From IMG/VR virus record IMGVR_UViG_3300048917_000273, positions 1-57,132 of that record: 57,132 bases of DNA; one strand, written 5' to 3'. The translations under genes were made by a program, and so were the position numbers. Shown one piece after another: positions 3,214 to 43,483 of this stretch. The first letter of the stretch is position 1; every line of letters begins with the position of its first letter. The notes below the pieces were generated by a model. The model saw only the letters and a list, made by a program, of their open reading frames with translations, had not been told where the DNA came from and did no database searches. This DNA comes from a virus.

Positions 3214-6200
3214 TCAGAACAGCACTTCGGCGGCTCGGTTCAGCACGGCGAGCGCGGTGGCCGCGGGGTTCACTGCCCCCTGTACCACGATAGCGCCTGC
3301 CTCGATCGTGACCTCGCTGCCCGCACCGCGGATGCCGCCGGTCGCCATGGCCGTCGTGCTCGCCTTGCCCTGCGCGATCGCAGACAGCCAGCGCACCGAC
3401 GGGTCCACTCGGCTGAGGCTCCGGTCCAGCGGAACGACAGCCTCCGGGCCAGCCTCACCGATGAGCGCATACTCGGGGCCGGTCGTGATCGTACCGGCGG
3501 CGTGCGCCGTCGACTGGTTGCGGTTCTGGCCGGTCGTGATCTGCCCGTCGGCGCGCACCGTCATCGAGATGATGCGGCCGTCCCAGGTGTCGTAGAAGCT
3601 CGTCACCGCCTGGTTCGCGCCCTTGGTGTCGACGTGGATCGCTGTGTTCACGTTGCTCGGGATCAGGCCCAGCCGATCGGCGTAGTCCTGCGCCGCCTTC
3701 GACGACAGGCCCAGCTTCTCGAGTTGCTTCACCAGCGCGTCGCGACCCTTGAGGATCTCGATCGACGCGGCCGCCTGGTCGCCGGTCTGCTTCTCGATCG
3801 CCGCCGCGGCCGCCAGCGTCTTCTGGCCGACGGCATCCATGGCCGCCTGGTTCGCGCGGCCTGCCGCTGTCGACGTGTCGAAGTCCGTCTTCTGCGTGTT
3901 CAGAGCCGCGCCGTTGTTCTTCACCGACTGCGTCGCGGCGTCGAGCGCGCTCTGGTAGTCGCGGGACGCCGAGCGCGCGTCGTACGCCGTGCTGCTGAAG
4001 CCAGCAATCGTCTGCGACAGGTTGTCCGTGTCGGTCGACGTGGTGATCGACTGACCCGAGAGCACGCGCAGCTGGTCAGCCTGCGCAGCCGCGGCCGCCG
4101 CCGCGTCGATCTGCGCCTGCGTCTGGCCGGTCATGGCCAGCTGTACCAGGTTCGCGTTCGTCGCGACGAGACCCTGCGCGTTGGCCGCCTGCGTCAGGGC
4201 ATCCTTGAAGCCGGGCATATTGTTGATCATCGCGAGGATCTGCTCGTTCGACGCGCCAGCCTCGGTGGCGTACGCGCTGAACTGCGCGCTCGCGGCCGAG
4301 AGGTCCGTCCCGGCGAGCGTGGCGAGCGCCGGGTCCAGTTCGCCCAGCGTCGAGCGCAGGTCGTGCGCGGCATCCCCGAGGTCGGATGCGCCGATCGTCC
4401 ACCCGGCGAAGAACTCGCCGCCATGGGCATCTTCGTCGGCGATGCGCTGCAGTGCGCCGTGCAGGTTGTCGGCGTTCAGCTTCAGGTTGCCGAAGGCGTC
4501 GGTCGCGTTCTGCACGCCGCTCGTGTTCGCGAACTGCCCGAAGATGTCCTGGTACGACTGCAGCAGGCCCTTGTTCGCGGCGACCGCCTCGTTGGCCTTG
4601 CCCTCCCAGTCGTTCATCTTGTCGATGATCCCGGAGATGGCGGCACCGATGCCGACGCCGACCGCGGCGAACGCGCCGAGAAGGCCAGCCTTGCCGACCA
4701 TGCCGCCCAGCTTGCTGCCGAAGTCTGTCGCGCTGCCGGTCGCCTTCGTGAACGCGGTGTCAAGACCGGTGAGTTCGACGGCGACACCCTTCAGCGCGGC
4801 TGCCACGCCCTGAGACTTGGCGATCTGGCCGAAGATCTCGACGACGGCGATGCCCTCGGAGGCGATCTTCTCAAGGCTCCCGGCGAAGGTGGCGATGCCC
4901 TTCACGGCTGTGATGGCCACGAACCCGGCGGCGACAGCGACCAGGCCACCAGCGATCGCCTGCAGCACCGGCGCCGGGATCGCGTTCACGAAGTCGGCGG
5001 CCATCTGCACGAGCGGGGCGAGCGCGGTGGCGAGCGCGCCGAGCACGGTGGCCGCGCCGGTGATGGCATCGGAGAGCGCGCCAGACACGGCCGTGGCGAG
5101 CGCGGTCATGGACGGCGCGAGCGGCGACAGGGCGTCACCGACATCGGCGAGCGCCTGCGCGAGCAGGCCGAAGACGTTGAGGTCGCCGAGGATCTGCAGG
5201 AGCGTGGTGAGATCCGGGATGAAGTCGGTCAGGTTGTTGATGAAGATCGCCGTGCGGTTCACCGAGGCATCCGTCACCAGGTCGTTCAGCCCGCGGCCGA
5301 CAGCATCGAGCAGCGGGCCGAGCGCGCCGAAGATCGTCTGGGCGTGCGACATCCACTGGTCGAACCCGTTCGACTGGGTGAAGTTGTTGAACTGGGTCGC
5401 GAGCCGGTCGACGTAGTCGAGCAGACCCTTCACCAGGGGCTGAGCCTGGTTGATCGCGCGCACCATGGCCAGGCCGAACGTGCCAGCCGAGCCCGCCAGC
5501 TGCTCGAAGTTCGTCGCGGCCAGACCGATCATGGTCTGCACCTGCGTGAGCGCGTCGCCGCCGCCGGACAGCGACGTGGTGAACTCGTCGAAGACGTGAC
5601 CGGCGGCCTTGCCGAGCGTGGTGAACTGCGGGTTCAGCTGCTTCAGCACGCCCTCGAGGAGGGTGAAGTCGCCTGACATCTCGGAGATCGCGCCGCGGGT
5701 GATCTGCTCCTGCACGCCGACGAGCGCATCCTTCAGGCCGGTGAACTCGACGGCCGCGCCCTTCAGGTCGTCGGGCAGCTTCTTCGCGTCCTTGTTCAGT
5801 TCACTGAAGACGAGCGCGAGCGCGCCGACGCCACCGATCGCCGCGGTCGCCGCGCCGCCGAGCGCGAGGATGCCACCACCGGCGGCCGAGCCGAGCGCGG
5901 CGATCTCATCACCGGCCGACGCGATGACGCCGATGATGAGCGTCCACTGCCGGGTGTTCGCCGAGAGATCCTGCCAGCTGATCTTGAGTCGGTCGGACGC
6001 GCCGCGGTTCTTGTCCATCTCGGCGCGGAGGTTCGCGAAGCTCGGGATGACCTTGTCGGCCTCGTCCTTCAGTCGCCGCGCCTCCGACTCGGCGTGCTTC
6101 TGCGATCCGACCCAGTCGTCCAGCTGCTTCTGCGCCGCCTTGTAGGCGGCCGGGTGCAGGTTGGTCTCGTCGCGAAGCGTCTTCAGCTGTCGCTGCAGGT

Positions 6201-40637: not shown

Positions 40638-40942
40638 TGCGCCGAGGCACCGCGATCGTCAAGCATCCGACCGAGGATCGACACCACACCGTCGAGGTCG
40701 TGCACATCGAGACGCCGCAGGATCTCGCCGACCTCGCCGCCGACGCCGACTGGCACGGCGGCAAGATGTCGGTCCTCCGCATCAAGGGCGTCCCCACCCA
40801 GGGGTGCATCGCACCCAAGCCGCCGCGCGGCGCAGGCGGCATCCGGTTCATGCCGGGTGCCTACATCACCAAGGACGAAGAGGGGCGCTTCTCGTTCCTC
40901 CGCAACGAAGCGGCATTCGTGCCGCAGGAAGAGACCGCATGA
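40637..40942 (+). CDS. hypothetical protein
   Basis: ORF 40568..40942 frame, from ATG 40637 (TGATG overlap). Confidence 0.65.
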   Translation: MRRGTAIVKHPTEDRHHTVEVVHIETPQDLADLAADADWHGGKMSVLRIKGVPTQGCIAPKPPRGAGGIRFMPGAYITKDEEGRFSFLRNEAAFVPQEETA

Positions 40943-41370
40943 ACATCACCATCCGGGCACTGAAGATGGCGCCCCGCGTGGACGGAGGAGAGACGGACGG
41001 ATCCTTCTTCGCCGTGCTACCCGGCGCTGAGACCTCGGTCGAGATCACAGCCGACGGTATCGAAGACTCCGGCATCCTGACCACCGTGCTCGCTCACACG
41101 TTCGAGACGGCGGCCGCGCTGCGTCATCTTGCCACCGGCGAACTGCAGGCCGAGGGCGAGTGGGTCTCTGTCGACGAGCCGACACCCATGCCGGGCGTGA
41201 CGCCCGACTGGCAGCCCGAGCGTCCCAACCCTGGGACGGATGCCGACGCCAAGGTCGGCATCGACATCGAGGCCGTCGCCGACGCCATCAAGCACGGGCC
41301 GAAGCTCTCCCGCTACGAGCGCGAGTTCCTGACCACCGTCATCACCAGCCACTCCATCGACCGCTCCTGA
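40939..41370 (+). CDS. hypothetical protein
   Basis: ORF 40804..41370 frame, from ATG 40939 (ATGA overlap). Confidence 0.7.
   Translation: MNITIRALKMAPRVDGGETDGSFFAVLPGAETSVEITADGIEDSGILTTVLAHTFETAAALRHLATGELQAEGEWVSVDEPTPMPGVTPDWQPERPNPGTDADAKVGIDIEAVADAIKHGPKLSRYEREFLTTVITSHSIDRS
41222..41237 (+). repeat. 16-bp palindrome copy
   Basis: GTCCCAACCCTGGGAC. Coding, read as RPNPGT. Confidence 0.9.
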
Positions 41371-41380
41371 GAGGAACCCC

Positions 41381-41428
41381 ATGGCCAACGAGACCCTTAT
41401 CACCGTCGTCGGCAACCTGACCGCCTGA
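41381..41428 (+). pseudogene. orphaned 5' end of ssb (15 codons then stop)
   Basis: GAGGAA SD followed by ATG. The MANETLITVVGNLTA-stop peptide matches the first 15 residues of the intact SSB ([15 protein letters not shown]) at 12 of 15 aa. Confidence 0.7.
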
Positions 41429-41994
41429 ATCCAACTACACTGAACTCATGATTACTCACGAAGAGATCGTGCTCGCAAGGCGAGTCACTGAGTTCTGGAT
41501 GGACGTAGCAATCGACGGCGACGAGTCGGCCTGCTGGCCCTGGCTCGGCTATGAAGAGGACGGCTACGGTCGCTTCTACTTCGACGGCCGGATGATGGGG
41601 GCGCACGAGCTTGCCCTCACATTCTCGACGGGTGAACGCCGCCTCGAACGCCTCGACACCTGTCACTCCTGCAATAATCCCATCTGCTGCAACCCGCATC
41701 ACCTTCGCTTCGGAACCAGGCAGTCCAATGTCGACGACATGGTCGCCGCGGGGACAGCGCGGAATGGCAGCACTCGACTCACAGAGAGCGATGTCGTCAC
41801 GCTCCGAGAGCGGTACGCAAACGGCGCACCGCAGGCGATTCTCTCCCGCGACTTTCGTGTATCAGGATCCCTGATCAGCGCGATCGTCCGCGGGCGCCGC
41901 TGGCCAAACGCTGGTGGCCCTATCATCACCGAGAGGAAGTACAACCGAGATGGCAAATGAAACCATCGTCACAGTCGTTGGTAACTTGGTAGCA
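41429..41994 (+). mobile_element. free-standing HNH homing-endonuclease cassette inserted after ssb codon 15, carrying a recoded replacement ssb 5' end
   Basis: This segment has visibly lower GC. The HNH ORF overlaps the new ssb start. The first 15 ssb codons use A/T-ending codons that are atypical for this genome. Confidence 0.6.
41448..41960 (+). CDS. HNH homing endonuclease
   Basis: ORF track, 170 aa. [49 protein letters not shown]. Confidence 0.85.
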
Positions 41995-42420
41995 GATCCC
42001 GAGATCCGCTACACGCAGAACGGATTGCCCGTCGCGAACTTCACCATCGCATCCACGCCCCGACACTTCGACAAGGCGAAGAACGAATGGGTCGACGACG
42101 AGGCGCTGTTCCTGCGAGCATCCATCTGGCGCGAGTTCGCCGAGAACGTCGCCGGTTCGCTCTCCAAGGGCACCCGCGTCGTCGCCACCGGCCGCCTCAA
42201 GCAGCGCTCCTACGAAGACCGCGAGGGCAACAAGCGCGTCTCGGTCGAACTCGAGGTCGATGAGATCGGCCCGTCGCTGCGCTACGCCACGGCCGCCGTG
42301 CAGCGCGTGCAGCGCGACAGCAGCCAGACCCGCCAGCAGCCGTCTGCGTACCAGCAGGAGCAGGAGGACGCCTGGGCCACGCCCCAGGCCGAGACCTACG
42401 GCGACGACACCCCTTTTTAA
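41950..42420 (+). CDS. ssb: single-stranded DNA-binding protein
   Basis: ORF 41914..42420 frame, from ATG 41950. OB-fold N-terminus [30 protein letters not shown]. Acidic tail DDTPF. Confidence 0.9.
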
Positions 42421-42432
42421 TCGGAGACCAAC

Positions 42433-42627
42433 GTGAACGTCATCGAACTCATCCAGAAGCTGCAGCGAGCACTGCGCGATGGGAGGCTCGAGGAGGATGA
42501 CTTCGTCATGCTCCGAGACCCGGAAGTATCCGACGGAGCGGTGGAAGCGGGCAGCGACCCGTACACCGACGAGATCGAGATCCTCTTCCCCGGCGACGGG
42601 CGAGTGGTTCTCCTGGTCTCAGAGTGA
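42433..42627 (+). CDS. hypothetical protein
   Basis: ORF track, 64 aa. GTG start with a GGAGA SD. Confidence 0.65.
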   Translation: MNVIELIQKLQRALRDGRLEEDDFVMLRDPEVSDGAVEAGSDPYTDEIEILFPGDGRVVLLVSE

Positions 42628-43040
42628 GCGAAGGCAAGGCGGCCGCATCTCCAGGTGCGGCCGCCCGGCCCCGCCGGAACCGCAAGTCCGCCAAGAAAGC
42701 GGGCACGTCGTTCGAGCGAGCCATCGCCGACTGCCTCGCTGAGCACGTCGATGACCGCATCGACCGCGCGGTGAAGCGCGGCGCCATGGATCCTGGCGAC
42801 ATCGCAGGGCTCCGCACTGTGCACGGACAGAAGATCGCCGTCGAGTGCAAGGACGTCAACACCATGGCGCTGCCCCAGTGGCTGCGCGAGGCGGCCGTCG
42901 AGCGGGACAACATCGCAGCGATCGCCGGGGTCGTGGTGCACAAGCGCCGCGGCATCACTGACCCGCTCGAGCAGTACGTGACCATGACCATGCGCGAGTT
43001 CATCGCGCTCGTGAAGATCAGCAGAGAGGGGCTGGACTGA
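42624..43040 (+). CDS. PD-(D/E)XK nuclease, Holliday-junction-resolvase-like
   Basis: ORF track, 138 aa. GTSFERAIADCL..DPGDIAGL..IAVECKD. Confidence 0.65.
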   Translation: MSEGKAAASPGAAARPRRNRKSAKKAGTSFERAIADCLAEHVDDRIDRAVKRGAMDPGDIAGLRTVHGQKIAVECKDVNTMALPQWLREAAVERDNIAAIAGVVVHKRRGITDPLEQYVTMTMREFIALVKISREGLD

Positions 43041-43483
43041 TGGCGCTGACCAAGGCGCAGATCGAGAAGATCGTCACGCAGGTGAAGGACACCCCTGACC
43101 GCGAGATAATCCTGCCCAAGCGCTACGCCTGGAAGGACCGCGAGCAGCCGTACATCTACGTCGACAGTCGACCGATGCCGCTGGTGCGCTACCTCTGGTG
43201 CGTCATCATCGGGCCGTGTCCCATTCCGGACGGCATGAAGCTGCGTCCCAAGGTTGGGACATCCCGGGCCAACGTGAACCCCTACCTGTGGGAGATCGTG
43301 CCGCAGGTGAAGCCAAAGCCGATCGGCCCGCGGCGCAACACGCTGGCCGACATCAACCGCGCGAAGACGACTTGCCCGAAGGGGCACGAACTCGTGCGCC
43401 GCAAGAGCGGCAAGCGGCTGTGCCTCGAGTGCCCGAGGGAATCCAAGCGCCAGTACCGCGAACGACAGAAGAGGGAATCGTGA
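43040..43483 (+). CDS. hypothetical protein with C-terminal zinc-ribbon (CPKGHEL..CLEC)
   Basis: ORF track, 147 aa. Confidence 0.7.
   Translation: MALTKAQIEKIVTQVKDTPDREIILPKRYAWKDREQPYIYVDSRPMPLVRYLWCVIIGPCPIPDGMKLRPKVGTSRANVNPYLWEIVPQVKPKPIGPRRNTLADINRAKTTCPKGHELVRRKSGKRLCLECPRESKRQYRERQKRES
43245..43260. repeat. 16-bp palindrome copy
   Basis: GTCCCAAGGTTGGGAC. Coding, read as RPKVGT. Confidence 0.9.

Follow-up and report, generated by a model that had tools for sequence, protein, structure and literature searches.

The window analysed here is the whole of IMG/VR virus record IMGVR_UViG_3300048917_000273 (57,132 nt), and its subject is a gene of the HNH (His-Me finger) homing-endonuclease type which separates two starts of ssb, the gene encoding the single-stranded DNA-binding protein (SSB), on the + strand. 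The Shine-Dalgarno (SD) sequence of the native ssb, GAGAGGAA, lies at 41369-41376, overlapping the stop codon of the upstream gene (40936-41370, + strand), with its core GAGG 6 nt before an ATG at 41381. It now serves an orphan open reading frame (ORF) at 41381-41428, recognizable by its similarity to the ssb starts of phages lacking the HNH gene, which consists of 15 ssb codons, MANETLITVVGNLTA, and a frameshift TGA at 41426-41428. The segment from there to the HNH gene (41426-41447) is identified by leader alignments as the decayed continuation of the old ssb, approximately codons 17-24, and has been co-opted as the HNH leader; it includes TACACT (41436-41441), a putative actinobacterial -10 element (TAnnnT) located 6 nt before the HNH ATG.

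The HNH gene itself occupies 41448-41960 and encodes a 170 aa protein, with an N-terminal nuclease and a C-terminal helix-turn-helix; its ATG at 41448 lies 19 nt past the orphan TGA and has no SD. Within its 3' end, at 41931-41939, is GAGAGGAAG, a possible SD for the relocated ssb start, which at the same time supplies codons E-R-K of the conserved ...ERKYN... HNH C-terminus. The ATG of the functional, full-length ssb (41950-42420, 156 aa) falls inside the HNH reading frame, so that the two genes overlap by 11 nt and the HNH stop TGA (41958-41960) overlaps ssb codons 3-4 (AAT GAA). The first 16 codons of this gene (41950-41997) are a recoded replacement, borne by the HNH cassette and distinguished by their divergence and their A/T-ending codons. 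The ssb product carries an OB fold and an acidic ...DDTPF tail (Pfam SSB PF00436, E=1.2e-28; PHROG 44, E=1.8e-46), and the gene is 77-79% identical at the nucleotide level to annotated Microbacterium phage ssb genes. A GTG in frame with ssb at 41914, 36 nt before its ATG, leads mechanical ORF lists to report an ORF of 168 aa; alignment with homologs supports 41950 as the true start.

Orphan, HNH gene and ssb lie in three different reading frames, and the orphan and replacement starts are identical at 31/45 nt and at 12/15 residues of the encoded peptides. The preliminary description of this stretch, made from the sequence alone, had reported the orphan with its SD, ATG and 15 codons before a stop, the HNH gene, the ssb ATG inside the HNH 3' end and the figure of 31/45; all are present as described, and a recount of the identity agrees.

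The HNH protein and its expression signals

The HNH product matches PHROG 1872 (E=1e-22) and PHROG 826 (E=9e-18), while its matches to Pfam zf-His_Me_endon and HNH_3 fall just under the gathering thresholds. Across 40 homologs, residues C29, W30, C72, H73, C75, C80, N82, H85 and N94 are invariant, and the last seven of these provide the His, Asn/His and Zn-binding Cys residues of a beta-beta-alpha-metal core. An AlphaFold2 model of the protein (pLDDT 89.7) has its best Foldseek match in I-HmuI, PDB 1u3e (probability 0.99, 134 aligned columns, 18% sequence identity), followed by I-PpoI; a search of PDB with the HNH sequence profile gave no match, and the fold search alone succeeded. I-HmuI is a nicking enzyme. 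It is encoded in the DNA-polymerase intron of Bacillus phage SPO1, whereas the window HNH gene is without an intron; it is a free-standing gene with its own ORF, start and stop, and neither intron nor intein is involved. A DNA-binding module is apparent as a three-helix region at the C-terminus of the model (H113-147), and precomputed HTH_3, HTH_31 and Sigma70_r4 matches exist for homologs. The GC content at third codon positions (GC3) of the HNH gene, 0.73, is the lowest of the 57 putative genes in the window (mean 0.86).

In all 10 loci of the subclade to which the window belongs, TAnnnT is found at -12 to -7 of the HNH start, as compared with 1 of 1697 ATG/GTG positions in the window, and none of the 10 has a purine-rich SD before that start. 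The spacing TAnnnT-N6-start is the leaderless-transcript geometry of actinobacterial promoters, and its conservation here, with no SD, suggests a leaderless HNH mRNA. For ssb, GAGAGGAAG is weak as an SD because it stands about 10-13 nt from the ATG; alternatively, ssb translation is probably coupled to HNH termination. A scan for E. coli-type promoters and terminators found none, which is uninformative for a high-GC phage. In a different HNH subclade (loci L178, L105, L100 and L179), a conserved 5' untranslated region (...CCCACTCACTTGATCTGAGCAAGGAGGGGCTAGC...) with a strong SD lies ~60-90 nt upstream of HNH, so that subclades of the cassette carry different expression signals.

HNH-linked ssb genes in other phages

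The DNA around relatives of the HNH protein was fetched for 254 loci (designated below by L numbers). At least 185 homologs were found at E<=1e-20. Among the fetched loci, every homolog with at least 47% identity for which downstream DNA exists is directly followed by ssb, while below ~40% HNH identity the association with ssb nearly vanishes. Among the ssb-linked homologs the HNH stop usually overlaps ssb codons 3-4, and the same 11-nt overlap as in the window is seen in L006, L007, L008, L010 and L012. The sole cultured member of the clade is the Gordonia phage Finkle, a singleton, with gp69/gp70. The HNH gene is carried at 5/80 similar ssb loci, a patchy presence at one fixed site.

At least 10 distinct loci have an orphan start or an in-frame fusion of the ssb start to HNH, and the junctions lie at codons 7, 11-12, 15 and 16-17. 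Orphans with the same end point as that of the window are found in L010 (MAGETVITVVGNLTA and a stop), whose HNH is 79% identical to that of the window, in L012 (MAGETLLTVVGNLTADR and a stop, then ~230 nt before HNH), in L341 and L342 (VAGETVITVVGNLTA and MSIPTTIVGNLTA, respectively, each followed by ESH and a stop), and in L178. Codons 1-7 of ssb are fused in frame to HNH in L096 and L133 and, by N-terminal sequence, also in proteins P0003, P0015 and P0026; codons 1-11 or 1-12 are so fused in L175, a Brachybacterium prophage, and in L102. Three more loci (L335, L338 and L340) have kept the leader, with orphan codons 1-15 absent. In L014, GGCAACCTGAC at 3975-3990, corresponding to ssb codons 11-14 (GNLT), stands just before a TAACAT-N6-GTG start of HNH, and looks like an almost fully eroded orphan. 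Homology between the window and L010 begins at the orphan ATG and ceases at the end of ssb (66-84%, depending on the segment); the genes on either side are at ~40%, which is noise. In Finkle, L006 and L008 the HNH gene appears intergenic, whereas in the window it lies within the original ssb coding region, with old codons 1 to ~24 upstream of it and the replacement start downstream. Judging by the loci compared, this layout is inherited within a large HNH clade specific to ssb and is not a one-off in this genome.

Xanthomonas phage SAC (L005, PV012638.1) contains, at 2001-2420 and directly upstream of its ssb, an unannotated, stop-ridden HNH homolog with 35% identity; such decay is as expected from the life cycle of homing-endonuclease genes, and the annotated ssb start of SAC (2330) is probably too far upstream, inside the HNH pseudogene.

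Origin of the two ssb starts

The comparison set of HNH-free ssb genes was picked by similarity to the SadLad ssb. With megablast, the 45 nt of the orphan are 93-97% identical (E=2e-8 in 2.3 Gb) to the 5' ends of annotated HNH-free ssb genes of the Microbacterium phages Hyperion, Blab, Gazebo, Nike and BabyDotz, each of which has a single uninterrupted ssb, as the preliminary description had predicted for relatives without the HNH gene; the match to Hyperion is 42/45. Against 72 HNH-free starts from IMG/VR the orphan has a median identity of 35/45 and a maximum of 40/45, and the median among the HNH-free starts themselves is likewise 35/45, while that of the replacement start is 29/45, equal to the 5th percentile of the HNH-free comparisons. 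The native remnant is thus nearer to the relatives than is the carried copy, and it is the carried segment that restores the gene. A second ssb start, which the preliminary description had named as the outcome that would overturn its reading, was seen in none of the 74 unique HNH-free ssb loci. Differences between orphans fall mostly at third positions (7/10, 8/11 and 12/14; P=0.02, 0.009 and 8e-5; 27/35 in total), so that the orphans appear to come from functional ssb genes that had been evolving separately. A search among GenBank phages for close relatives of the window phage gave short matches only; searches with the two flanking proteins in IMG/VR gave 0 and 1 distant matches, and an exact-peptide DNA pattern for the intact MANETLITVVGNLTADP allele gave none.

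The displaced native start retains its SD and ATG, is broken at codons 16-17 and is decayed from there to the HNH ATG. The leader before that ATG aligns to ssb codons 17-22 in L010 (12/14, P=0.001) and L012 (14/17, P=0.02), and in L341 shares an exact 9-mer with them (P=0.009). Taken alone, the window leader gives no significant match to the old ssb (P=0.14), though it has the same length as that of L010 and is identical to it at 11 of the 15 nt after GCC (by hand count); a MAFFT alignment (A3) agrees that the leader is a continuation of the old ssb. In the window, a 5-nt deletion (GACCC, codons 16-17) immediately after 41425 shifts the frame into the TGA, and the same deletion is found in L010; the lesion in L341 and L342 is a net gain of 4 nt with scrambled sequence, and that in L012 is an insertion of ~225 nt. 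All three of these different lesions lie within orphan codons 16-17. The 232-nt spacer of L012 has a homolog in none of the fetched loci. The orphan had earlier been taken to end at codon 15; its stop is indeed there, but the next 22 nt are frameshifted, decayed old ssb. A clean junction at codon 15/16 is ruled out by the leader alignment, with its 5-nt deletion and the old ssb continuing beyond. Since the leader is old ssb past the deletion, the original insertion would have been near codon 24, and the duplicated segment ~72 nt long. A filler of the L341 type (GAATCTCA) in the window leader was considered and dropped, the agreement with L010 in length and at 11 of 15 nt being the simpler account. 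The lesions may be scars at the recognition or cleavage site of the nuclease, or the result of selection on it; in either case the spot at codons 16-17 probably marks the nuclease target.

The replacement start is of quite different character. Only 6 of its codons 2-15 (14 codons) end in G or C, which places it in the lowest 0.8% of the 14,183 14-codon windows of this 67% GC genome, as compared with 13/14 for the orphan. The preliminary description had noted this atypical usage and placed its end at codon 15; the A/T-ending codons are present, but the last of them is codon 16 (GAT), so that 9 are found among replacement codons 2-16 against 13 in all the remaining ssb codons, stop included. Between orphan-type and replacement copies, codons 13-16 have gone from CTG ACC GCC GAC to TTG GTA GCA GAT in the window. 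Replacement starts from different loci are identical to each other at 35-37/45 and to their own orphans at only 28-31/45; the orphans cluster with the HNH-free alleles, and the replacement copies cluster together. With similarity of the ssb body controlled for, HNH similarity tracks the similarity of the ssb heads (partial Mantel r=0.21, P=0.004), which is not so in the reverse case. It was on this basis that the replacement start could be shown to be inherited with the HNH gene, the two together making up the element.

Hyper-divergence is confined to this end of the gene. Between HNH-linked ssb genes and their nearest HNH-free alleles, identity is 0.62 over codons 1-16 and 0.76 over the body, codons 25-110 (P=5e-5), while pairs of HNH-free alleles show no head-specific drop (0.85 vs 0.83); the corresponding figures in the window are 60% (codons 1-16), 83% (codons 17-24) and 81% (body). 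The motif NLTADPE (in full, GNLTADPE) is kept in 59/74 HNH-free but 1/24 HNH-linked alleles (Fisher P=2e-11). The excess of change in the latter peaks at codon 3 and at codons 14-15, with G3 changed to N in 14/24, T14 changed (to V) in 14/24 and A15 changed in 15/24. The recoding of codon 3 is accounted for by the overlapping HNH stop, which forces AAT GA there. These results, together with the travel of the replacement 5' end with HNH, support the original suggestion of a homing cassette that brought in a diverged copy of its target, and the data are consistent with cleavage resistance of that copy.

Several further features of the window and of related loci deserve mention. A second HNH-like ORF in the window (43040-43483, + strand; PHROG 826, E=1.6e-11) has its first nucleotide in the stop codon of a RusA-like resolvase gene (42624-43040); BLASTP detects no similarity between it and the ssb-linked HNH, and it may encode a further homing endonuclease of the free-standing kind within this replication module. 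A 43-nt stretch at ~38276-38318 matches the genes for DnaB-type replicative helicases in Pseudomonas phages PP9W and vB_PaeS-D14H at 93% identity, probably reflecting a conserved helicase motif. In L341, a second gene, of the HNH_3 family (1441-1920), lies directly downstream of ssb, placing endonuclease genes on both sides of it. The gene upstream of the cassette in L012 (305-2554) is helicase-like (AAA_25), with a 749-aa product that has a weak LAGLIDADG_3 match, and could encode a helicase that contains an intein, within the same module. The gene upstream of HNH in L006 (~2700-2800) ends ...DDLPF, an acidic motif typical of SSB C-termini, and may encode a second SSB-tail-bearing protein or be a remnant.

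Proposed homing and rescue, and alternative explanations

Very probably, then, an HNH lineage specific to ssb has placed a homing-endonuclease cassette within the 5' part of the coding sequence of this essential gene. We propose that in a mixed infection the I-HmuI-like enzyme would recognize or cut the conserved ...GGC AAC CTG ACC GCC GAC CCC GAG... (GNLTADPE) of an HNH-free ssb, and that repair would then copy HNH and the rescue segment from the donor, with the orphan and the ssb body serving as homology arms. The carrier's new ssb copy would be immune through the substitutions at codons 13-16, T14V among them, and its orphan through the lesion at codons 16-17; the divergence of the two repeats probably also guards HNH against recombinational deletion. 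Expression of HNH is probably low, whether its mRNA is leaderless (TACACT-N6-ATG) or ribosomes reinitiate on it once they have terminated at the orphan ORF; for ssb, expression would depend on coupling to the end of HNH translation. The GNLTADPE-coding stretch is typical of actinobacterial host SSB genes also, and the host ssb might be cut too, in which case prophage copies such as L175 and L177 would need either an immune host allele or repression of HNH.

A more ambitious version of this proposal may well be right, and is put forward tentatively: that this is a natural "home-and-rescue" drive in viruses, an HNH lineage that would invade an essential gene with neither intron nor intein by means of a recoded, cleavage-immune N-terminal rescue, the native start acting as the left homology arm with its target killed by error-prone repair scars at codons 16-17, and the remainder of the old gene exapted as a leaderless HNH promoter.

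A number of observations weigh against homing with a carried rescue segment, or limit its reach. No closely related HNH-free sibling of the window phage was found, so no co-conversion tract can be read directly; a detectable orphan is absent from many members of the clade (Finkle, L006 and L008 among them); and the window and L010, which share the same 5-nt deletion, may descend from one insertion instead of independent homing events. The single HNH-linked allele that keeps NLTADPE is that of L316, whose HNH is 48% identical. HNH-linked alleles are not phylogenetically independent, and this, with the SadLad-based ascertainment, makes the P-values optimistic. HNH-free alleles too show a milder dip in 5' GC3 (0.80 vs 0.89), and low GC3 at the 5' end can also result from selection for an unstructured initiation region.

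One alternative is an ordinary mosaic joint, in which one illegitimate recombination took place inside ssb and HNH came along as a passenger that cuts nothing here. The unrelated flanks of the window and L010 would fit this, as would the general mosaicism of phage genomes and the lack of close relatives of the window; yet at least 10 loci show the same architecture, invariably in the first ~17 codons of ssb and only with this HNH clade, the three different lesions strike the same two codons, and it is specifically the heads of HNH-linked alleles that are hyper-diverged, all of which make such a joint improbable. If the ssb start had been duplicated locally in tandem, with HNH entering later between the two and the downstream one diverging where it stood, it would be clear why both encode nearly the same peptide. 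Such a duplication is highly improbable, however, since the replacement copy is nearer to those of other loci than to its own orphan, head similarity tracks that of HNH, the HNH stop/ssb start overlap is found in orphan-free loci as well, and no duplicated start is seen where HNH is lacking. Splicing of a group I intron or an intein, or a translational bypass, could link codon 15 of the orphan with the new copy from its codon 16 onwards (DPEIRY...) and would give a perfect SSB N-terminus. This is scarcely conceivable, given that only 22 nt are non-coding, that three frames are involved and the orphan ends in TGA, and that a complete ssb with its own start is already there; an Rfam scan of 40800-42800 at E<=1 gave no match, and so no sign of an intron, ribozyme or riboswitch, and the RNA fold of 41365-41480 (z=+1.3) shows no stable structure.

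Two other explanations concern the role of the parts as they stand today. The HNH protein could be a domesticated partner of SSB in replication or recombination and not a selfish element, to which its strict linkage with ssb, the overlapping frames over a large clade and the ssb initiation signals embedded in its 3' end would be well suited. Its presence at so few of the similar ssb loci, the pseudogene in SAC and the invasion signatures (orphans and hyper-diverged heads) render this decidedly improbable, and T4 segG, still a homing element, likewise embeds promoters of gene 32. The orphan, for its part, may be kept as an upstream ORF whose translation supplies ribosomes, through termination-reinitiation, to the HNH start, which lacks an SD and lies 19 nt further on; this would be an addition compatible with the homing cassette. 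The intact SD, ATG and 15 clean codons in the window, L010, L012 and L341 point this way, as do the lack of an SD at the HNH start and the fusion loci, in which the ssb initiation signals drive HNH. Such a role is on the whole unlikely, though deserving of attention: loci with the leader alone do without codons 1-15, the conserved TAnnnT-N6-ATG fits a leaderless transcript equally, and the synonymous bias of orphan divergence is also explained by inheritance from a functional ssb.

The cassette shares features with several known systems. The homing endonuclease SegG of T4, a free-standing enzyme of the GIY-YIG type, is encoded beside gene 32, the T4 SSB gene, which it targets (PMC2988022). Like the window HNH, it is the product of an intron-less phage gene directly upstream of an SSB gene, and gene 32 promoters embedded in the endonuclease gene favour its retention (PMC2988022), much as the ssb start lies inside HNH here. 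SegG differs in being of the GIY-YIG class and intergenic, and no duplicated or orphaned gene start or recoded rescue segment is described for it. Homing endonucleases have also split Aeh1 nrdA (mobE) and T4 gene 39-60 (mobA) (PMC2988022); these too are free-standing HNH endonucleases within the coding sequence of an essential gene, with neither intron nor intein, but there the gene product is made as two polypeptides which come together again, whereas in the window a full-length ssb has been rebuilt with the carried replacement start, and what was displaced is left as a dead stub of 15 codons. A further parallel lies in the fungal mitochondrial mobile ORF (mORF) hybrids of Allomyces macrogynus atp6 and of Glomus atp6, atp9, cox2 and nad3 (PMC3630166), in which an endonuclease ORF in a coding gene brings with it a foreign, diverged duplicate of the gene end and leaves the native end as a remnant nearer to the relatives. 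These are a mirror image, the C-terminal segment being replaced and the remnant lying downstream; they are also mitochondrial and not of phages, belong to a different endonuclease lineage, and show no overlap between endonuclease stop and gene start. The engineered home-and-rescue (HomeR) drives have a nuclease home into an essential gene with a recoded, cleavage-immune rescue while loss-of-function repair products are eliminated (PMC7968924); the design logic is the same, with no implication of homology, HomeR being synthetic and based on Cas9 and a guide RNA in a diploid animal. In the phage literature searched, no description of a duplicated, carried or recoded gene start beside a homing endonuclease was found.

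The ssb cassette thus represents a third way into an essential protein-coding gene without splicing, through a carried replacement start instead of an intron or intein or a split gene; the carried-gene-end mode had been documented only in mirror image, in the fungal mitochondrial mobile ORFs. It also brings to light an unannotated HNH clade of considerable size (at least 185 proteins), whose target can be predicted as the segment of actinobacterial-type ssb that encodes GNLTADPE, so that specificity and immunity become directly testable. It explains anomalous gene predictions, among them stubs of 15 codons and HNH proteins beginning MAGETVI, and caution is indicated in phylogenetic work, the ssb 5' ends of HNH-linked alleles being foreign and hyper-diverged. 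In its parallel to recoded-rescue gene drives the cassette could serve as a compact, protein-only template for engineering actinophages, and its layout is common to many related actinobacterial phages.

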